Below are positions 414-42,420 of a DNA stretch of 64,000 nt, in pieces. Source of the stretch: Shigella phage ESh22; the sequence record ON528732; one strand, given 5' to 3'. The notes under the pieces are model-generated. The model was given only the letters and a program-made list of their open reading frames with translations. It did no database searches and had not been told where the DNA came from. A program made the translations under genes and the position numbers. The stretch's first letter is position 1. The number at the start of each line of letters is the position of its first letter.

Positions 414-679
414 TCCCTCGTTTTTAACGTTGCGTAGATTTCTTTGGAATCTTCACCGAACCAGATATAGTGATTCTCTTTGATTTCAGGATGGTTGTCA
501 ACACGAATCTTACATTCTCTTCCAACATGTTTTAACTGTGCCGTGATTCCCTGTATGAATAGGTGACACATGATATCATCCATGATTGTTGGTAAGAAGT
601 CAATTCTCATGTAAGTGTTGCTTGGTCTTGGGAGTAGTAGATAACCTTCTACATAGAACGTTTCATTCTTCTCTGTCAT
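410..679 (-). CDS. hypothetical protein (89 aa)
   Basis: ORF track; ATG at 677-679 overlaps the stop of the upstream o-spanin ORF (ATGA). Confidence 0.5.
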   Translation of the reverse strand: MTEKNETFYVEGYLLLPRPSNTYMRIDFLPTIMDDIMCHLFIQGITAQLKHVGRECKIRVDNHPEIKENHYIWFGEDSKEIYATLKTRE

Positions 680-945
680 TGCTGCTTATTCCCTAACAAA
701 ATCATATCAATCAAATTGTTTGCCTTGATAGCACATTCATAGAATCCATCACGATAAAACTCCATAGCACTAGCAAGGTCTTCACCCTTAGTACCTTTGA
801 CAGTGTACCTAGTTTCTTCCTGAGTGTACTTGTCACTCTCACTTACTTGGGAGTTTTTGAAGGTACTGTTCACCTTGTTCATTGAACACCCTGACATAAG
901 ACTCAGTAGCACAAATATTAAGAAACTCTGTCTTAGTTTTTTCAT
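676..945 (-). CDS. outer-membrane spanin (o-spanin, Rz1-like lipoprotein)
   Basis: 89 aa with signal peptide and lipobox (LSLMSG-C); gene starts inside the 3' part of the i-spanin ORF in another frame (overlap 839-945), the classic overlapped spanin architecture. Confidence 0.65.
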   Translation of the reverse strand: MKKLRQSFLIFVLLSLMSGCSMNKVNSTFKNSQVSESDKYTQEETRYTVKGTKGEDLASAMEFYRDGFYECAIKANNLIDMILLGNKQQ

Positions 946-1186
946 AAGTTAATACCTCTTTTGTGTGTTTGTTTTTAGCAAGCACATCTTTCAAATCGTT
1001 TTTGTAATTAGCGCTAAGGTTTGCTAAACCTTCTTGGTAAGCATCCTTAGCAACACTAACCAATCTCTGATTAGTCAACTCTTTCTCGTTAACTTGGCTG
1101 GTCTTGTAAGTATAACCTCCCCAAGCACCAACACCTAACAGAAACATGATTACAAAAGCAGCTTGACAAAATTCTTTAAATGTCAT
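839..1186 (-). CDS. inner-membrane spanin (i-spanin, Rz-like)
   Basis: 115 aa with N-terminal transmembrane helix (FVIMFLLGVGAWGG) then charged, helix-rich periplasmic domain; contains the embedded lipoprotein ORF; near the endolysin. Confidence 0.65.
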   Translation of the reverse strand: MTFKEFCQAAFVIMFLLGVGAWGGYTYKTSQVNEKELTNQRLVSVAKDAYQEGLANLSANYKNDLKDVLAKNKHTKEVLTYEKTKTEFLNICATESYVRVFNEQGEQYLQKLPSK

Positions 1187-6650: not shown

Positions 6651-6830
6651 TTACTTTTTAAATTTCTTTCCAGTTCCGTTACAGTAAGGGCAACAATGCC
6701 CAATACCAGCTATTCCAGAACCTTCACACTCATTACATGGTTCAGTCTCTGCAAAGTACTTGCAAAGCAATACTGCAATAGCAACAATACAACCAAGTGA
6801 TAAGATAATCTCTAACCAATAACCTTGCAT
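6651..6830 (-). CDS. small membrane-anchored protein with two CxxCxGxG (DnaJ-type zinc-finger) motifs, 59 aa
   Basis: Hand-translated, absent from the ORF track (<60 aa): MQGYWLEIILSLGCIVAIAVLLCKYFAETEPCNECEGSGIAGIGHCCPYCNGTGKKFKK; hydrophobic N-terminus, then CNECEGSG and CPYCNGTG. Confidence 0.4.
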   Translation of the reverse strand: MQGYWLEIILSLGCIVAIAVLLCKYFAETEPCNECEGSGIAGIGHCCPYCNGTGKKFKK

Positions 6831-12174: not shown

Positions 12175-12566
12175 TAAATCACCTCAAAATCTACCTTCTC
12201 ATATTTAACAACATACTCTTCACAGTGTTCTTTGATGAAGTCTGTTAGCAATTCATCTTCCTGTGCTCTTGTTATTAAAGCTACGTATTTGGGATTCATG
12301 ATTTGCTGGTGGCTGTGAATCTCGAAGCAACCTACATCTGTACCATCGTCATCAGACCAAGTACCGTGAAGGACTACAACTAACCCGTCAAGTTCTTGAG
12401 GAAGTTGTAGATTGGAATCAATAGCATCTGCAAAGACCTCTGAAGTAATCAAGCACTCTGCTGAGATGTAGAAAGTGCTTCCACGACGATGTTCTTTAGA
12501 AGAACTCCCAAACTCAAGAGCATACTCTACTAAGAACTCTTTCATATCTTTAGTTAGTTTTATCAT
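12174..12566 (-). CDS. hypothetical protein (about 130 aa)
   Basis: ORF 12174..12581 trimmed to the ATG at 12566 (MIKLTK) with AGGAAA RBS. Confidence 0.45.
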   Translation of the reverse strand: MIKLTKDMKEFLVEYALEFGSSSKEHRRGSTFYISAECLITSEVFADAIDSNLQLPQELDGLVVVLHGTWSDDDGTDVGCFEIHSHQQIMNPKYVALITRAQEDELLTDFIKEHCEEYVVKYEKVDFEVI

Positions 12567-12660
12567 TTTTATTTCCTGCAAAGTGTGTGTAAAGTAATCC
12601 TAAACAGAATCCTAGTGTAGTCGAACCTATTAGTGTTATCAATAAAAATTCTTTTATCAT

Positions 12661-12918
12661 TTAGTACCACCATATTGACTGATTGTTATCACAAGTATAC
12701 AAGTACTCTGTACCAGTTTGTGGGACTAGGATTGTTGTATTCCCTGCCTGAACTGACACATAATAAGTGTACTCTCTACTCTGTGAAGTTTGTTGACAGT
12801 GGTTTGCCTCCATCCAGATAGAAGTGTGATAAGCATAGTATGCAGCATAACCTATCATAGCTACTAAGAGAATGCCAATAACCCACATCCAAAAGTTATG
12901 CCAGAAGTCATAACTCAT
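12661..12918 (-). CDS. small membrane protein (85 aa), aromatic-rich transmembrane segment
   Basis: ORF track; WMWVIGILLVAMIGYAAYYAY hydrophobic segment. Confidence 0.45.
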   Translation of the reverse strand: MSYDFWHNFWMWVIGILLVAMIGYAAYYAYHTSIWMEANHCQQTSQSREYTYYVSVQAGNTTILVPQTGTEYLYTCDNNQSIWWY

Positions 12919-15349: not shown

Positions 15350-15556
15350 TTAATTTTTGTTTAAGAGATTATCAAGGAAGTTTTTAACCTTGGTACTCCA
15401 TCCAAACTGAATGTCTAGAATTTCAATGATTAGCCATACTAGCATAAACCCGAACATTAAACCTTGTTTAAAGTCAATGAACATGTTCAGCAAGAAAATT
15501 ACCCAGAGAAGCATAGGAGCATCTTCTTTGAAGCCTTTAAAGATTTTATCCAGCAT
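15350..15556 (-). CDS. small membrane protein (68 aa)
   Basis: ORF track; two hydrophobic segments. Confidence 0.45.
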   Translation of the reverse strand: MLDKIFKGFKEDAPMLLWVIFLLNMFIDFKQGLMFGFMLVWLIIEILDIQFGWSTKVKNFLDNLLNKN

Positions 15557-35898: not shown

Positions 35899-36420
35899 AT
35901 GCAAAAGATTGGAATCAACTTACTGCTCCCAGAAGCATCAATGTTGAGAGGTATTATCACCACTCACCTTGAAACCAAAAAGTCACAAGAAGGTGAAATA
36001 CTGATTAAAACAAACTATGATGCAGGAACTATTGAGTTGGTTGATGAAGATACTGGGGACTCACTTTGTATTCTTCCTGCTCATCTGTTCGCAACTGAGT
36101 TCAGAGATGCTAAATCAATCTCTGTAAAGACTGAAGCAAGCATTGACTTGTATGAAGGGACTCAGTACCCTAAATCCTTCAAAGCTCTTTTGAACATCTT
36201 CATAGATGATATCAGAGAGGTTGTGAAGCCATACATAGGCCGACATGTAGTTAACGCAACCTGTGAAAACAATTATTACATTCGCTTAGTAGGTGACTTA
36301 GGTTCTATGGACTTCCTAAGCTTTATACCCAAGCACTTTGAAGATTTCTTATCAAGTGAGTGTGATGATTTAGACTTCGTAGTTGATATCCAGCAAACTT
36401 TTAAGGTAAACAAAAAATGA
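35899..36420 (+). CDS. hypothetical protein (173 aa)
   Basis: ORF track. Confidence 0.45.
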   Translation: MQKIGINLLLPEASMLRGIITTHLETKKSQEGEILIKTNYDAGTIELVDEDTGDSLCILPAHLFATEFRDAKSISVKTEASIDLYEGTQYPKSFKALLNIFIDDIREVVKPYIGRHVVNATCENNYYIRLVGDLGSMDFLSFIPKHFEDFLSSECDDLDFVVDIQQTFKVNKK

Positions 36421-36689
36421 AACTTTTTGAGAAGTTTGAGCAATGCTACAACCAAGATGGTGAACCTCTAAAATGCCCCCATTGTGGGGGTACAAATTTC
36501 CAAGGTGAGATTACAGAGATTGTGGCAGGGAACGTAGCAGAAGAGTACACACGTTGCACTGATTGTGACAACATCATCTCTTTCTGGGCTTATGGCAGTT
36601 ATCAACCACAACCACGCTTAGTATTCCATCCAGTAAAAACTGTGAAGAATATTGCTAACTGGTTTATTGTAAAAGGGTTCACACAATGA
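36417..36689 (+). CDS. small zinc-ribbon protein (90 aa)
   Basis: CPHCGG ... CTDCD Cys4 arrangement. Confidence 0.45.
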   Translation: MKLFEKFEQCYNQDGEPLKCPHCGGTNFQGEITEIVAGNVAEEYTRCTDCDNIISFWAYGSYQPQPRLVFHPVKTVKNIANWFIVKGFTQ

Positions 36690-37231
36690 TTAAATTGGTT
36701 TTTGCAAACGGTCTTAACGGGGAGTTTGGTTGCCCCTCTGGTATGCCTTGGCCTCGTAATAAGCAAGATATGCAAGAGTTCAAGAGGATTACTACAGGTC
36801 AATTGGTAGTTATGGGTAATGACACTTTCAAGAGTCTTGGAAGTAAACCTTTACCAGACCGTGATAATCTTGTTCTGACAAACTCATTACCGTATGAAGG
36901 TATAGATTTTGGTAGAGAAGATGTAATGTTTGCTAAGGTTCACCCAGACGCTTTTGGGGCATTCTTAAAACATCTGGATAGTAGTATTGAGCAAGATGTT
37001 TGTATAATTGGTGGAGCAGGTATTCTTATCCAAGCTTTACCATATGCAGATGCAATTTGTCAAACATATATCCGTGAAGTGACTGAAGAAGCAACTGTTA
37101 AGCTGCCTTATAAGGGTTTCTTTGAGCACTTGTATGACGAGTCAACTTTTGCTAGAATACAGTCAAAACCGTCGAAAGATGACAGCGTTGTATTCAACAT
37201 TTATGTTCCACAAGTAAGAGGACGTTTCTAA
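36686..37231 (+). CDS. frd: dihydrofolate reductase
   Basis: 181 aa; N-terminal 'MIKLVFANGLNGEFGCPSGMPW' DHFR signature; immediately upstream of thymidylate synthase. Confidence 0.8.
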   Translation: MIKLVFANGLNGEFGCPSGMPWPRNKQDMQEFKRITTGQLVVMGNDTFKSLGSKPLPDRDNLVLTNSLPYEGIDFGREDVMFAKVHPDAFGAFLKHLDSSIEQDVCIIGGAGILIQALPYADAICQTYIREVTEEATVKLPYKGFFEHLYDESTFARIQSKPSKDDSVVFNIYVPQVRGRF

Positions 37232-37232
37232 T

Positions 37233-38132
37233 ATGTCACAAGCAGATGTAAGCTACAAAGGGATTCTCAACCATGTTCTTTCTGTTGGTGAAGAACGTAA
37301 AACCAGAACTGGAAAGGTTATTACAACGTTTGCACCTCCAGAGTTTCGTTTTGACATGCGTAGTGGTTTCCCATTAATTACTTCAAAGCAAACCTTCATG
37401 CGTCAAGTTTTAGGTGAAGCATTGTGGTTTTTGAATGGTGAAAACAAGTTGGGTGATTTACGCTACAGAACTTGGGGAGAGAACGATGGAGAGCGTTGGA
37501 CTATCTGGACAGATGATTTTGAACGTTGGTTAAAGACAACCTATGCAACTGAAAATGATTGGTTGGAAGACGCAGGTGGGCGAATCTATGGTGTCCAATG
37601 GAGGTCTTTTGAGGGGCATGGTGGGGTTGTCGTTGACCAGTTGAGTAATCTTGTGGATAAGATGAAAAAGTCTCCTACAGACCGTTACATGCTGGTTAAC
37701 GCATGGAATGCAGCAGATATCTCAAGCAACTCTATGGCATTAGCACCTTGTCATGTTCTTTTCCAGATTTATATCTCGAATACTGGAGAGGTTGACTTGA
37801 AATGGTATCAACGTTCATGTGATACGTTCTTAGGTTTACCATTTAACATTGCTTCTTATGGGTTTATCTTGCAAGTTCTTTGTAAGATGACAGGATTAAC
37901 TCCACGTTATCTTGTTGGTACTTTTGGTGATACCCAGATTTATCTGAACCATATGCAGCAAGTTTATCAGTTGTTAGGTAACGAAGATTACCCAGCACCT
38001 AAGTTTGAGATTGATGTTGAGTTAAACAGTATTGATGACCTGAAGCACTTAACAGCAAGTGACTTTATAGGTGGTTTGAAAGATTACCGACATGCTGGTA
38101 AGATTGAAGCTCCCTTGTCAGTAGGTAAGTAG
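37233..38132 (+). CDS. td: thymidylate synthase
   Basis: 299 aa; active-site region 'LAPCHVLFQIY' with catalytic Cys; uninterrupted ORF (no intron). Confidence 0.85.
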   Translation: MSQADVSYKGILNHVLSVGEERKTRTGKVITTFAPPEFRFDMRSGFPLITSKQTFMRQVLGEALWFLNGENKLGDLRYRTWGENDGERWTIWTDDFERWLKTTYATENDWLEDAGGRIYGVQWRSFEGHGGVVVDQLSNLVDKMKKSPTDRYMLVNAWNAADISSNSMALAPCHVLFQIYISNTGEVDLKWYQRSCDTFLGLPFNIASYGFILQVLCKMTGLTPRYLVGTFGDTQIYLNHMQQVYQLLGNEDYPAPKFEIDVELNSIDDLKHLTASDFIGGLKDYRHAGKIEAPLSVGK

Positions 38133-38135
38133 ATA

Positions 38136-38166
38136 CAAAAAAGGCTCCTTTTTACGGGAGCCTTAG
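38136..38166. terminator. bidirectional intrinsic terminator between convergent td (+) and the minus-strand late genes
   Basis: AAGGCUCC-loop-GGGAGCCUU hairpin flanked by A6 on one side and U-rich sequence on the other. Confidence 0.55.
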
Positions 38167-38168
38167 CA

Positions 38169-38543
38169 TTATTTCTTTTTAACATTCTGTGTATTTTGTT
38201 CGGTAATTGCTTGTAAAGCTGATACAGACTGTGCTAAGTTGTTCACACTATCTGAGAATTTATCAAGGGTTTTGGTCAACTTAGCGTTTTCCCCTTTAAC
38301 GTTCTCTAACTGCACTTTCTGGTTTTCCATCCCTAACTGAAGGAGTTTCATATCAGACTGTAAATCACGAATAGCTGAATAGTTACCTTTTGAGTAACCA
38401 TCCAACTGTTGTAACTTTGTGTTGATAGAAACTTCTTGCTTTCCATCAGAGACCTGCATCGTAGTGTACATACCAATTACACTGAAAATACCTACAACAA
38501 TTGCGCCAATGTTGTTCTTAAAAGCCTCTTCAATCCACTTCAT
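38169..38543 (-). CDS. membrane protein with N-terminal TM helix and coiled-coil periplasmic domain (124 aa); lysis-related candidate
   Basis: TM 'IGAIVVGIFSVIGMYTTM' then heptad-rich charged sequence; directly follows a small membrane protein, downstream of the tail-fibre genes. Confidence 0.4.
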   Translation of the reverse strand: MKWIEEAFKNNIGAIVVGIFSVIGMYTTMQVSDGKQEVSINTKLQQLDGYSKGNYSAIRDLQSDMKLLQLGMENQKVQLENVKGENAKLTKTLDKFSDSVNNLAQSVSALQAITEQNTQNVKKK

Positions 38544-38737
38544 TATTTTTCACCCTTAAAAGCCTTTTCCAAGGTATCTACAAATTCATCATCAATAGGT
38601 GTGTCTGTTTTACTCGCAAGGTATCTTGCAAGCTTGAAGAACACTTTTTCAATCATGTATTCGCTAAGAAGAGAAAGTAGAAGCTTCCAGAAGAATGCCC
38701 CAAGATTTTTCAAGAGGATTGCTAGAATGGTTGGCAT
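38543..38737 (-). CDS. small hydrophobic membrane protein (64 aa); holin candidate
   Basis: N-terminal hydrophobic segment 'ILAILLKNLGAFFWKLLLSLL', charged C-terminus; AAGGTGA RBS. Confidence 0.35.
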   Translation of the reverse strand: MPTILAILLKNLGAFFWKLLLSLLSEYMIEKVFFKLARYLASKTDTPIDDEFVDTLEKAFKGEK

Positions 38738-38759
38738 TTAATCACCTTACTTCTTAAGC

Positions 38760-38815
38760 CAAGATGGTGAGAATACCTACTAAGAAATATTAACACCATC
38801 TTGACAGTTAGTCAA
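38760..38815. repeat. inverted repeat (10-bp arms CAAGATGGTG / CACCATCTTG, 24-nt loop) followed by palindrome TTGAC-agtta-GTCAA
   Basis: Perfect 10-bp inverted repeat at 38760-38769 / 38794-38803; palindrome at 38801-38815; intergenic between the tail-fibre stop and the next gene. Confidence 0.5.
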
Positions 38816-38823
38816 CAAGGTAA

Positions 38824-41199
38824 TTATGCAGTTCTTACCCAAGCCATTAGTTTAATGTAAGTGTTAAGAACACTGAATGCTGCACCAGAACCAGTCGCAC
38901 CAGTGTCACCACTGAATGTGTGGTTGTGTCCACCAATGCCTACACCGTGAGCATGAGCACCTACCCAACTTGTTCTACCTGTCCAAGTTCTGGAAGCATA
39001 GAAGTTAACTGGCGCACCATAAGTGAAGTTAGAACCTGTCCAGCTATGCAAACCTTGGCTACCACTCATTGCAAAAGCACCGTCTGCAACGTAGAACGAG
39101 TTATTATCACTTCTAAACCATCCAAAGTTACCAGAGATTTCCATATTACCTCTGTCATGGTCGTGAGCACCCTGACCATCTGTGTACTTAGTTCCATAGT
39201 CAAACCAAGAAGTTGTCCCAGAGAAGCCGTGAGTGTGTGCAGGGATGTGACCAACACTTAATGCAACCGTATCAGCACCACCAAGACCTTTCACATCAGA
39301 GCCATTTTCAGAACCAATCCTAATAGTTCTGTTTGCACCCTCAGTTAAGTAAGTCCAAGTAGTGCCTGGGAAAGCTGTATTTGGGTTGACATTAGAAGCA
39401 AAGAACGTCACAATACCAACTGGATACACTTTCTTAAGGTCTGTAGCATCAGTTACAGCGGAAGCAATACGTTGGTCTACTTCAGCCTTGGTGTAAGCAC
39501 CAAGTTCAGAAGGTGTAGGCTTAGCCTTATCTGTATAGATTTTAGTCCAAAACTCTTCAAAACCAACACTATCCCTTGCTGTTCTATAGTAGATTCCACC
39601 ATTTTTGTATTCGAACCTAAGCTGTGCAGAAGGTGTAGATGCACCAATTCCAAGGTGCATTTGGTAAACTAAGTGAGATGAACCACCACTTGCACTTGTA
39701 ACATTGTACAAACCTGTTTTTGCATCCCAAGCAACACCTGTGCCATCACCTACTTCTGTTCCAGTTCCAGATACACCAGACAACATATATCTTGAGTTTG
39801 CAGCAGATTGTGTGTAGTATCTTGAGTCAAAGTTTGACCAATCGCTTGGTCTTACTTGTCCAACAATATTCACATGTGTATTCACATCTAAATCAGTACC
39901 AATATTGATTGCCTTTCCTGTTACATCATTGTTAAGTACCACATTGTTTTGACCAGCATCACCAATACCCAACCACCATCTCCTGCTCCCATTAGCATTA
40001 TGTGCAGACATGTAGATTCCAGAGTCTTGTACTGTTGCCTGTAGTCTAAAAGGATTGTCGCTGTCAGTATTGATAGTCTGTGGACTAGTAAAAACGTTTG
40101 CAGCATTAGTTCTTGCAAGAACGTTCGTCAAAGAGCTTGGAACATATCTTGTATCAAAGTTAGAAAAGTCACTTGGTTTTACCTGACCAGCTACATTGAT
40201 AGCTTTGTTAAATGAAAACTCTGTAGCAATTTTCAAGTTAACATTTGTCATCTGGTTTGCTAAAACAATCTCAGACTGCGTACCATCTGGTTGACCTACA
40301 TACCAAGTTCCTGTCCCAGCACTGTTATAACCACGCATAAATAATGCAGCATTCTCTGTAACCGCTCTTAAGTTAAGTGCATTACTATCTGCAATAACAT
40401 AAGTCTTACCATTGAAGTTGTTAACCCCAACAAAGTTATTACTTGCATTAAGTTTTGCAAATCTCTGGTCAGCAGCAGTCTGTGTAAAGAATCTTGCATC
40501 AAGGTTATTCCAGTTATTAGGCTGAACCTGTCCATTGATTTCAAAATTCTTATCAACACTAACAGAGTTTGTGCCAAGAGTCAACGTAGCACCCTTGCTA
40601 TTAACTAATGTAACATCAGTACTAGAAGTCAAGTTACCAACTGTGAATCTTAAAGCATTATTTGAATCCCTTGCTTCAATATATGCTCCACCATCTGGTA
40701 AGATACTTTTAAGTGTTAGACCAACACCGTTGATATTAATGATTTGTCTTGCCAAGAAAGTATTTTCAGTTTCCTTCATAGCATATCTTGCATCATTTTC
40801 AATATTAGTTCTCATACCTAATTCATTAGGAGATGGTTTATTAAGTGTGTGATAAACTGTTGCAGACCTTGTGGCATCGTTTACAGTTAATCTTAAAGCA
40901 CTCGCATTAATTCTAAAGGTTTTGGCAGTGTCACCAAGAATAACCTCAGAAGAACCTGTTGGGTCTAATAAGTCTTTTCCACCGTATCTTAATTTAACGA
41001 TTCCAAGATTCCCTACCATATCTCCACCAGTTAGTTGTAAGAATCTTTCTAGTTTGAAAGAGGCAAGGAAATTTGCATAGGTCATTTTACGGTCTTCATC
41101 ACCAAGCATATCAGACCTTTTGATAACTCTTAGGTGAAGTAAATCTTCTGAGCGAACTGTGTCAATACTGTTTAGCTCACTTAGCTTATATTCAGCCAT
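38824..41199 (-). CDS. tail fibre protein (long, His-rich C-terminal receptor-binding region)
   Basis: 791 aa; Gly/Ser/Thr/Asn-rich repetitive body; C-terminal HxH repeats (HIPAHTHGF, GAHDHD, GAHAHGVGIGGHNHTF); ends '...MAWVRTA' like the neighbouring fibre. Confidence 0.7.
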   Translation of the reverse strand: MAEYKLSELNSIDTVRSEDLLHLRVIKRSDMLGDEDRKMTYANFLASFKLERFLQLTGGDMVGNLGIVKLRYGGKDLLDPTGSSEVILGDTAKTFRINASALRLTVNDATRSATVYHTLNKPSPNELGMRTNIENDARYAMKETENTFLARQIININGVGLTLKSILPDGGAYIEARDSNNALRFTVGNLTSSTDVTLVNSKGATLTLGTNSVSVDKNFEINGQVQPNNWNNLDARFFTQTAADQRFAKLNASNNFVGVNNFNGKTYVIADSNALNLRAVTENAALFMRGYNSAGTGTWYVGQPDGTQSEIVLANQMTNVNLKIATEFSFNKAINVAGQVKPSDFSNFDTRYVPSSLTNVLARTNAANVFTSPQTINTDSDNPFRLQATVQDSGIYMSAHNANGSRRWWLGIGDAGQNNVVLNNDVTGKAINIGTDLDVNTHVNIVGQVRPSDWSNFDSRYYTQSAANSRYMLSGVSGTGTEVGDGTGVAWDAKTGLYNVTSASGGSSHLVYQMHLGIGASTPSAQLRFEYKNGGIYYRTARDSVGFEEFWTKIYTDKAKPTPSELGAYTKAEVDQRIASAVTDATDLKKVYPVGIVTFFASNVNPNTAFPGTTWTYLTEGANRTIRIGSENGSDVKGLGGADTVALSVGHIPAHTHGFSGTTSWFDYGTKYTDGQGAHDHDRGNMEISGNFGWFRSDNNSFYVADGAFAMSGSQGLHSWTGSNFTYGAPVNFYASRTWTGRTSWVGAHAHGVGIGGHNHTFSGDTGATGSGAAFSVLNTYIKLMAWVRTA

Positions 41200-41211
41200 T
41201 TATAAATCCTC

Positions 41212-41242
41212 TTTCTAGGGGCTGTGCAGCCCCTTATAAAAT
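41212..41242 (-). promoter_or_regulatory. GGGGCUG-CAC-CAGCCCC hairpin element between the two tail-fibre genes (no U-tract)
   Basis: Same GGGGCUG/CAGCCCC stem as the elements at 4190 and 9049; flanked by a TAGAAAG box and the AAGAGG RBS. Confidence 0.4.
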
Positions 41243-41244
41243 AA

Positions 41245-42420
41245 TTACGCAGTTCTCTTCCAAACATATACAACATAAGAAGGTTGCTCAATATTAAATG
41301 CTTGTCCAGCACCAAATGCACCAGTTGTGCCTGAGTGAGTGTGTTCAGAAGATTGAACTGTCACAGTACCAGAGTGTCCATGCGAACCAATTACAACACT
41401 GTGTCCATGTGCTCCAATATACACACTGTGAGAGTGGTTACCACCAACTGAAGAGTTAACGTTGAATGTATGTGTATGAACCCCATCAAAGTCTGTATAT
41501 GACGCATTACCAATACCTGCATCAGCCGATGCTGTGATAGCGTTCACACCACCCCTGTCAGAACCCCTCAATGGAATCCTGTGGCTGTGACTACCAGCAC
41601 TGCTTACAGAACCATTAACGTTATGAGCGTGGCTTCCAGAGTCATTTGTGGCCTTAGAATCATAATCAAAACTTGATGTGTTCCTAATCCCATAGTCAAA
41701 GCTAGAAATTACTACTGTTGCATTATGAGAGTGCCCACCACCAGTTAGCAACACAGAGTGTGTGTGACTTGGAATGTTATTTTGTGTAAGTGTTGCAGTA
41801 GCAGAACCAAATACTGATTCTACAGGTCTTGTATCTGTGTCATAACCAACAAGAGACCTTCCTTTAGAAACTAACTCCCAAGTACCACCACAAAGTAAAT
41901 ATGTAGTTGGGTTCGCAGGGTTAACTGATAAATGAATAGTACCAATTGGATAGCTATCCTGAATAGCTCTGTATAAAGCATTCACAGCTTTTGCAGTAGC
42001 ATACTTATCAGCATCTTCAGAATAAGAGTTTGAATATGTCCAGTTTTGGATATTAGACAAACCTACTTGAATCTTGTTGGTGTTGTGAGGATTATTCTTG
42101 TCATTAATGTGGTTCTGGATAAGAGTATTGACTTCATCACTTGATAGAATATTAAGATTCTGTCTAGCCTCTTCAACACTGACCACATCTGACAAGTTAT
42201 TAGCAGCCACTAATTGGAGTGCGTTAACAACATTCCCAAGGTCTACGTGAACCTTTGTAACACCGTGTGGGTTATTTCTCAAAGATGCGTGTGGAGCAAG
42301 TAATTGCTCAAGTGTGCATCGCCTATCCTCAATACCTTGCTTAAGGTGAAAGATATCACTTAAATCAATAGGTAATGAGGCTTGAGGTAATGCACTAATT
42401 TGAATTTCACCGACTGCCAT
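41245..42420 (-). CDS. tail fibre / receptor-binding protein with dense HxH repeats
   Basis: 391 aa; 'GGGHSHNATV', 'GSHAHNVNG', 'GSHSHRIP', 'VHTHTFNVN', 'GNHSHSVYIGAHGHSVVIGSHGHSG', 'EHTHSG'; C-terminus '...YVVYVWKRTA'. Confidence 0.7.
   Translation of the reverse strand: MAVGEIQISALPQASLPIDLSDIFHLKQGIEDRRCTLEQLLAPHASLRNNPHGVTKVHVDLGNVVNALQLVAANNLSDVVSVEEARQNLNILSSDEVNTLIQNHINDKNNPHNTNKIQVGLSNIQNWTYSNSYSEDADKYATAKAVNALYRAIQDSYPIGTIHLSVNPANPTTYLLCGGTWELVSKGRSLVGYDTDTRPVESVFGSATATLTQNNIPSHTHSVLLTGGGHSHNATVVISSFDYGIRNTSSFDYDSKATNDSGSHAHNVNGSVSSAGSHSHRIPLRGSDRGGVNAITASADAGIGNASYTDFDGVHTHTFNVNSSVGGNHSHSVYIGAHGHSVVIGSHGHSGTVTVQSSEHTHSGTTGAFGAGQAFNIEQPSYVVYVWKRTA

Follow-up and report, generated by a model that had tools for sequence, protein, structure and literature searches.

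What opens the membranes of the host when Felix O1-like phages lyse it? These phages have found wide use in Salmonella typing, in biocontrol and in therapy, and their holin has never been identified experimentally. We addressed this question in a stretch of 64,000 nucleotides (nt) from Shigella phage ESh22 (ON528732; hereafter the window), where two small open reading frames (ORFs) of 64 and 124 amino acids (aa) are present on the minus strand at positions 38169-38737. An initial annotation had proposed that they are a holin/antiholin pair, or a pinholin working with a secreted endolysin. We found that the 64-aa protein belongs instead to the family of the PM2 lysis protein P18. The reading we prefer, and to which we give about an even chance of being right, is that the pair forms a two-gene lysis module of the PM2 type, in which a P18-family late-lysis, outer-membrane factor is joined to a lineage-specific one-pass protein with a coiled coil, the leading candidate for the holin. 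The lysis-related nature that the initial annotation had seen in the pair is most likely, as judged from the P18 family and from a position that corresponds to the slot of holin t.

The identity of the first gene carries this reading. The 64-aa protein matches phrog_402 (E = 1.2e-21), and the 51-aa gp l of PM2 matches the same group at 8.2e-14. PM2 gp l also scores 18 bits against a hidden Markov model (HMM) of the family that was built from tailed-phage members only, with PM2 left out, and the alignment spans the conserved core KLL..L.sE..I....f..A..lA.k(T/S).(T/N)..D(D/N)E(F/L)(V/I)D.LE. Homologues 92-95% identical to the 64-aa protein carry a precomputed assignment to PF26925 ("Phage_PM2_Gpl"); the local copy of Pfam was without this model, hence the lack of a Pfam match for the 64-aa protein itself. 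These comparisons indicate, at the level of sequence, true homology between the 64-aa protein and PM2 P18 (gp l). According to PMC6356626, P17 (gp k) of PM2 punctures the cytoplasmic membrane and P18 assists in breaking down the outer membrane; in that text and in PMC1950889, P18 is reported to disrupt the outer membrane after another protein has permeabilised the cytoplasmic membrane, a role known from PM2 alone. P18 homologues in Felix O1, RB49, PaP3 and cyanomyoviruses had been noted by 2007 (PMC1950889). The identity of the 64-aa gene is thus already published, yet GenBank records call it hypothetical.

A HMMER search of 1.84 billion cluster representatives returned 279 representatives of the P18 family, and among the 150 of these that were listed nearly all are stand-alone proteins of 49-101 aa. 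The 64-aa protein has the traits of the family: a stand-alone chain of about 50-90 aa whose N-terminal part is cationic and amphipathic, whose turn reads T-x-T-x-x-D-D and whose C-terminal helix is acidic. AlphaFold predicts three helices with a pLDDT of 83, of which H1 (residues 2-23) is hydrophobic and cationic, H2 (26-43) amphipathic and H3 (47-63) acidic, with the turn motif T-x-T-P-x-D-D. Residues F33, A37, T46, D49 and D50 are invariant across 30 family sequences; the N-terminal part is net positive in every one of them, and for the C-terminal part the median charge is -3.5. When the model was compared with viral structures by Foldseek, the matches were uncharacterised family members only. 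The 64-aa protein had been described as strongly hydrophobic, which is overstated. Its grand average of hydropathy is +0.28, the hydrophobic part is limited to residues 2-23 and includes K10 and K18, and the usual hydropathy threshold for a membrane helix is reached by 13 of the 30 family members, PM2 P18 scoring 1.1. A role as a receptor-blocking or superinfection-exclusion factor was considered and rejected: the protein is without a signal peptide or lipobox, and the family spans phages with different receptors. As a separate observation, ten separate stretches of a 4303-aa protein among the representatives (P0254) match positions 31-59 of the P18 profile, which may point to a repeat protein or may be an artefact of composition.

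We then asked how the pair relates to the rest of the lysis machinery. The initial annotation had placed a lysis cassette near the start of the window, and its overlapped spanin pair is confirmed: an Rz-like inner-membrane spanin (i-spanin; E = 4.8e-36) overlaps a lipobox ORF, the putative outer-membrane partner (o-spanin). The enzyme of this cassette does exist as a signal-peptide-bearing SLT-like protein, with a cleavable Sec-type signal (cut between ...QVATA and SD). Its SLT match reaches 20.8 bits against a cut-off of 21.3, its PHROG group is of unknown function, and two unrelated genes, one of which is a polynucleotide kinase gene in Sf13, lie between it and the spanins. Because the GH24 lysozyme of relatives, a soluble enzyme (Sf13 gp25), is encoded outside the window, the SLT-like protein is not the main endolysin, and there is little to support the premise that the cassette is incomplete and centred on a secreted endolysin. 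A soluble GH24 endolysin leads us to expect a canonical large-hole holin somewhere in the genome. In Sf13, no membrane protein flanks the GH24 endolysin gene.

These features bear directly on the view that the pair is a holin/antiholin couple, or that the 64-aa protein is a pinholin serving the SLT-like enzyme. Both proteins start with a hydrophobic helix and are co-translated, a secreted SLT-like protein is encoded in the window, and in several marine phage cassettes a P18-like protein is the sole hydrophobic protein beside a soluble endolysin, so that a role at the inner membrane is conceivable. The division of labour described for PM2, however, has P17 puncturing the cytoplasmic membrane and P18 acting on the outer membrane (PMC6356626), and the helix of the P18 family is borderline for a membrane helix by the counts given above. 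Each protein of the pair has at most one hydrophobic helix; a two-helix topology, a signal-anchor-release (SAR) domain, a SAR-like partner, a dual-start motif and an RI-like domain match were looked for and not found. The cleavable signal of the SLT-like protein, its sub-threshold Pfam score and the soluble nature of the main endolysin argue in the same direction. We regard this view as very unlikely, the least probable of those considered here; the pinholin working with a secreted endolysin is not supported, and the 64-aa protein is better accounted for as a P18 homologue than as a holin, antiholin or pinholin.

By contrast, the 124-aa protein is a plausible holin. It contains one hydrophobic helix at residues 11-29 (Kyte-Doolittle 1.62). 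AlphaFold predicts a helix at residues 2-29 followed by a single helix of 84 residues at 40-123 (pLDDT 70-83), and the heptad register of the coiled coil is unbroken, with 75% hydrophobic a/d positions over 12 heptads. Hydropathy, heptad analysis and AlphaFold therefore agree on the architecture first assigned to this protein, one membrane helix plus a coiled coil. Its family is best conserved in the membrane helix and in a distal motif, LDK(F/L)xDSVNNL..VSAL, and the C-terminal tail ends in ...NVKKK. The 124-aa protein conforms to the generic shape of a holin: small, with one or more membrane helices and a C-terminus that is hydrophilic and charged. It corresponds to Felix O1 gp79, Sf13 gp120 and Sf14 gp55, in a group confined to Ounavirinae, and its relatives are labelled "holin" or "putative holin" in many GenBank records and in UniRef. 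In the genome announcement of phage Moogle, the homologue is likewise a putative holin and the lysis genes are scattered. The proposed holin candidacy of the pair thus holds for the 124-aa protein, already so annotated in relatives, and fails for the 64-aa protein. The 124-aa gene lies at the 3' end of the late operon, which suggests late expression. It does not stand beside an endolysin gene, the GH24 endolysin gene of relatives being tens of kilobases away and outside the window; such a distance is not disqualifying, as it is common in Felix O1-like and T4-like phages.

In the mechanism that we favour, the 124-aa protein would insert in the inner membrane by its N-terminal helix and oligomerise through its long coiled coil. 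Acting as the holin, it would permeabilise the cytoplasmic membrane and let the soluble GH24 endolysin reach the cell wall. The 64-aa protein would act last and help to destabilise the outer membrane alongside the Rz-like spanins.

Both ORFs behave as real genes rather than chance ORFs, as judged from low ratios of nonsynonymous to synonymous substitution (dN/dS), kept coupling and PHROG matches. Pairwise dN/dS has a median of 0.045 in either gene (dS about 1.0 for the 64-aa gene and about 0.3 for the 124-aa gene), which points to strong purifying selection on both. The PHROG match of the 124-aa protein has an E value of 7e-70. Each ORF has a single Met start and no alternative start upstream, and each is preceded by a Shine-Dalgarno sequence: AAGGTGA, 4 nt ahead of the ATG, for the 64-aa gene, and AAGGGTGA, 6 nt ahead of the ATG, for the 124-aa gene. 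The overlapping stop/start first noticed in the window is a TAATG with an overlap of one base. When 33 related loci were compared with the window, the stop/start coupling was kept in all 34, distant genera included, and the start of the second gene always lay -3 to +1 nt from the stop of the first, as a 1-nt overlap, a 4-nt overlap or a start directly after the stop. With this arrangement, the two genes would be translationally coupled.

The neighbours of P18-like genes in other phages were then compared. P18-like genes lie directly downstream of Phage_lysozyme at loci L052, L053/54, L062 and L006, contexts that include a Shewanella prophage, marine siphovirus contigs, Vibrio phage 2.095.B and a topoisomerase-bearing phage; they also directly follow Amidase_3 (L055/56) and DUF5675 (L057/58). 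Elsewhere, the neighbour is a membrane protein. The P18 gene of PM2 overlaps the preceding gene for P17, a one-pass membrane protein with a coiled C-terminal part. A T7-like contig (L044) has its P18-like gene after, and overlapping, that of a 90-aa protein with a membrane helix plus coiled coil, at the slot of the T7 gp17.5 holin. In Pseudomonas phage Bjorn the P18-like gene is ahead of, and overlaps, the gene of an 82-aa protein of the same architecture (gp61), and in all Ounavirinae it is ahead of the 124-aa family gene. RB49-like phages have the P18-like gene directly ahead of Phage_holin_T, with or without gp38 between the fibre and P18-like genes; in them, the homologue of the 64-aa gene sits between the fibre genes and t, which bears out the likening of the location to that of holin t in T4. 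The endolysin-adjacent and membrane-protein-adjacent contexts are as expected for a lysis gene. In SU10-like and GAP227-like podoviruses, the P18-like gene is within the structural operon, after a needle-knob or adaptor gene. This context is neutral, since T7-like and SP6-like phages also have holin genes inside their structural operons.

Two observations were made at individual loci of this comparison. In an uncultured Ounavirinae-like sequence (L038, 5450-5932) and an RB49-like one (L042, 5139-5939), a gp38-like adhesin ORF with the N-terminal sequence ...GW(V/I)GSSA..ETGQRWMS... intervenes between the distal fibre gene and the P18-like gene, so the P18-like gene tracks the membrane protein downstream and not the fibre itself. 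In Vibrio phage 2.095.B (L067, 42391-43115), the lysozyme gene is followed by the P18-like gene, and an annotated membrane lipoprotein overlaps the preceding ORF; the two may be a spanin pair, in which case P18-like genes do not simply replace spanins.

A number of points weigh against the reading of the pair as a PM2-type module with the 124-aa protein as its holin. The likeness of the 124-aa protein to P17 is, in our analysis, one of architecture and of pairing with a P18-like gene only: the alignment of the 124-aa family with PM2 P17 by hhalign had a probability of 0.3%, and P17 belongs to another PHROG (32586). The probability was 0.4% for T4-type holin T (four sequences), with no Pfam match at E <= 1, and below 1% for the 90-aa partner of the T7-like contig. 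With Bjorn gp61 it was at most 3% (E = 0.015, for an N-terminal match of 15 residues only). Rz-like PHROG matches, weak and partly in register, were obtained for the window protein (0.02), the uncultured Ounavirinae-like member (4.7e-7, phrog_739) and others (0.002-0.02), and a long coiled coil of periplasmic type is typical of i-spanins rather than of holins. In several endolysin-adjacent cassettes of marine phage, the P18-like protein is the only hydrophobic protein beside the soluble endolysin; as no other membrane protein is near, permeabilisation of the inner membrane might in these cases fall to the P18-like protein itself. With spanins already encoded, the need for a second outer-membrane factor is not obvious, and the holin could be one of the other small membrane proteins of the phage. 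The Felix O1 genome paper (2010) counts gp79 as one of five holin candidates, no holin was identified in the Meda genome announcement (2019), and we found no experimental test of either protein in the literature on Felix O1-like phages. By reverse transcription polymerase chain reaction (RT-PCR) in Felix O1, ORF79 was maximal at 5 min, in the earliest class, and the overlapping ORF78 at 25 min (PMC3185647). The major capsid gene is also "early" in this set (PMC3185647), which looks too noisy for timing. Finally, Sf14 gp55 ("Holin or lysozyme") was detected by mass spectrometry in particle preparations (PMC11821841).

The coiled coil brings us to the main rival explanation, in which the 124-aa protein is an i-spanin-like anchor with a periplasmic coiled coil of about 12 nm, the P18-like protein replaces the o-spanin, and the holin is elsewhere, for example a two-helix protein like Sf13 gp33. 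An i-spanin indeed has this architecture, with a membrane helix at the N-terminus and an unbroken coiled coil after it, and the weak Rz-like PHROG matches recur. The distal end of the coiled coil is most conserved, as expected for a site that binds a partner, P18 is reported to act at the outer membrane, and the genome holds other holin candidates. However, no lipobox ORF lies within or beside the 124-aa gene, and a canonical spanin pair is already present, which means that the 64-aa/124-aa pair is not the only outer-membrane device of the phage. The alignment of the 124-aa family with the window's own Rz had a probability of 0.2% in hhalign, and the PHROG matches may reflect coiled-coil composition only; profile matches to PDB are generic coiled coils, and a sequence search of PDB gave generic coiled coils and chance matches only. 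In addition, the PM2 partner of P18 is assigned to permeabilisation of the cytoplasmic membrane, and the charges that flank the 124-aa helix are nearly balanced and give no clear support to the orientation, with the C-terminus outside, that such a device requires. We therefore consider a spanin-like device unlikely, although it comes before the other competing explanations. Searches of Pfam and NCBIfam with both proteins gave coiled-coil noise only, with no match to RI- or RIII-type families, PHROG included, and PADLOC defence models gave nothing meaningful for the pair.

The detection of Sf14 gp55 raises another explanation, that the two proteins serve the tail fibre or needle in its structure or assembly, or are membrane-active entry factors borne on the particle. 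The protein, whose locus tag FDI99_gp102 we confirmed to be Sf14 gp55 and the 124-aa homologue, was put among the structural products, and the tail needle of Sf14 bears an unassigned dome-shaped cap (PMC11821841). A fibre, needle-knob or spike gene very often precedes the P18-like gene (in Ounavirinae, RB49-like and SU10-like phages, Grimontviridae, Lahexavirus and PH1), and the coiled-coil profile matches of the 124-aa protein include trimeric fibre stalks. The Sf14 sample, however, was a 13,000 x g pellet precipitated with trichloroacetic acid, with no gradient or caesium chloride (CsCl) step, and an assembly chaperone was also scored as present in it (PMC11821841). Membrane debris is expected in such an ungraded pellet, and carry-over of membrane is the probable source of the detection. 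In Felix O1 purified by two CsCl bandings, 17 virion proteins are listed, and gp78 and gp79 are not among them (PMC3185647). For VpaE1, 22 virion proteins are given after CsCl, and in the ORF table of the supplement, ORF76 and ORF77 are only hypothetical proteins. Presence in virions, which had been named at the outset as evidence that would count against a lysis role, is thus touched on by the detection of the 124-aa homologue in the Sf14 pellet, while neither protein is among those listed for Felix O1 virions. P18-like genes are, moreover, found beside endolysins and far from structural genes, and PMC1950889 describes PM2 P17 and P18 as lysis proteins, apart from the structural P1-P10. An association with the virion is quite improbable in our judgement, more so than a spanin-like device. 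As for gene position, it is common for a holin gene to come after fibre genes, T4 t and T7 17.5 being examples.

The features of the locus and of the lysis cassette are collected in Table 1. Over positions 36000-42000, the window shares 99.5% identity with Shigella phage ESh21 and about 88% with Sf13, Sf14 and other Moogleviruses, which places its source, by sequence, in Mooglevirus (Ounavirinae, Felix O1-like). The late structural operon, from terminase to tail fibres, reads from about 61.7 kb to 38.2 kb on the minus strand, with the 64-aa/124-aa pair at its extreme 3' end. As the initial annotation had it, the pair directly follows the tail fibres: the order is the gp37-like fibre gene, an 86-nt gap, the 64-aa ORF, the 124-aa ORF and a terminator, facing thyA. 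The same terminator element is given as t79/t80 in Felix O1 (PMC3185647).

Table 1. Positions in the window of the gene pair, its flanking elements and the lysis cassette.
Feature	Position	Strand	Assignment or basis
64-aa gene	38543..38737	-	P18 / gp l family (PF26925, phrog_402)
124-aa gene	38169..38543	-	phrog_4038; one-pass membrane helix + coiled coil; candidate holin
791-aa gp37-like tail fibre gene	38824..41199	-	Pfam gp37_trimer 1e-44, gp37_C 3e-18
Intergenic leader, nested hairpin	38738..38826	-	RNA folding
Sigma-70-like promoter match inside the hairpin	38787..38815	-	consensus scan
Bidirectional intrinsic terminator	38141..38164	both	terminator scan; closes the late operon and convergent thyA (thymidylate synthase)
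Overlapped spanin pair	676..1186	-	i-spanin 839..1186 (phrog_1152), lipobox ORF 676..945 (LMSGC)
Signal-peptide SLT-like protein, 190 aa	2388..2960	-	near-threshold SLT match; phrog_600

The gap ahead of the 64-aa gene is predicted to form a hairpin of -34 kcal/mol (z = -6.55), and none of 200 shuffled sequences was as stable. Its outer stem pairs the region of the fibre stop codon (UAAUUACCUU) with the Shine-Dalgarno region of the 64-aa gene (AAGGUGAUUA, 38739..38748). Most of 23 unique Felixounavirus and Mooglevirus sequences are predicted to fold in the same way; the core of the hairpin is invariant with almost no covariation, so that covariation neither supports nor refutes the structure. 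The hairpin contains a promoter match, TTGACT-17-TGTTAATAT with an extended -10 TG, of which both hexamers are kept in nearly all relatives; promoter-like matches overall were not enriched, 11 being found and 14.5 expected from shuffles. On read-through late transcripts, the ribosome-binding site of the 64-aa gene would be hidden in the hairpin, and its synthesis would be restrained or coupled to fibre translation. A transcript from the embedded promoter would be without the left arms of the stem and would have a free ribosome-binding site. Kolesnikvirus and an uncultured relative have an intrinsic terminator in the same gap instead of the hairpin. With either the hairpin and promoter or a terminator in the gap, the pair appears to be insulated from the fibre genes and regulated separately from them, possibly in the manner just described. 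In a broader form of this proposal, P18-like proteins with varied one-pass partners would be a widespread, lipoprotein-independent module for envelope disruption in tailed and tailless phages, here working in parallel to spanins and gated by an RNA switch, in which the hairpin hides the site on read-through transcripts and those from the embedded promoter are translatable. We put this broader form forward as a doubtful one.

Next, the pair was compared with known lysis systems. Genes XVII and XVIII of PM2 are said to encode P17 (gp k) and P18 (gp l), reportedly in the work of Krupovic, Daugelavicius and Bamford (Mol Microbiol 64:1635, 2007); by the P18 homologues noted in 2007 (PMC1950889) and the existing "putative holin" annotation, the pair was largely anticipated. 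In common with PM2, the window has the P18 homology, the overlap with the gene of a small one-pass membrane protein and a pair that closes the late structural operon. The order differs, P17 coming before P18 in PM2 and the P18-like gene before its partner here. The 64-aa protein has about 13 extra hydrophobic residues at the N-terminus, and its H1 is long enough to span a membrane. The PM2 partner has 53 aa as opposed to 124 aa, with no detectable homology between them. No putative endolysin is recognised in the PM2 proteome (PMC1950889), and we saw no spanin annotation for PM2, whereas an endolysin and canonical spanins are found here.

T4-type holin T (PF11031) is also a one-pass membrane protein, whose gene closes a late unit right behind the distal fibre genes, and the order fibre, P18-like, t of RB49-like phages mirrors the order fibre, P18-like, 124-aa gene here. 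In contrast to this shared position, the two proteins have no sequence or profile similarity, and T has a cytoplasmic N-domain of about 30 aa and a globular periplasmic domain where the 124-aa protein has an N-terminus of 10 aa and a pure coiled coil. Rz/Rz1-type i-spanins share with the 124-aa protein the N-terminal membrane helix, the long coiled coil and the weak PHROG similarity, but the 124-aa gene is without a cognate lipoprotein gene, its neighbours being the P18-like gene and a terminator. In phage lambda, the sdi stem-loop of gene S exerts translational control over the holin and antiholin starts. As there, an RNA structure covers the ribosome-binding region of the first lysis gene. 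In the window, however, there is one start codon and hence no dual-start ratio, the stem pairs the Shine-Dalgarno sequence with that at the upstream fibre stop, and a promoter-like element lies inside.

As a consequence of these assignments, "PM2 P18-like lysis protein" would be a better label for the 64-aa gene than "hypothetical" or "holin". A "putative holin" beside a P18 homologue narrows the search for the holin of Felix O1-like phages to one two-gene module. The P18 family coexists with spanins in many phages, which draws attention to how it breaches the outer membrane.

Other small membrane proteins are encoded in the window. Small hydrophobic ORFs of 36, 85 and 68 aa at 12550-12918 and 15350-15556 (minus strand) could be alternative holin candidates; the 68-aa ORF belongs to phrog_4532, of unknown function, and these extra candidates are comparable to those of Felix O1. 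A 59-aa protein at 6651-6830 (minus strand) has a strong membrane helix followed by two CxxCxGxG motifs in a tail resembling a zinc ribbon, and it is conserved in Sf13 as gp71 ("predicted membrane protein").

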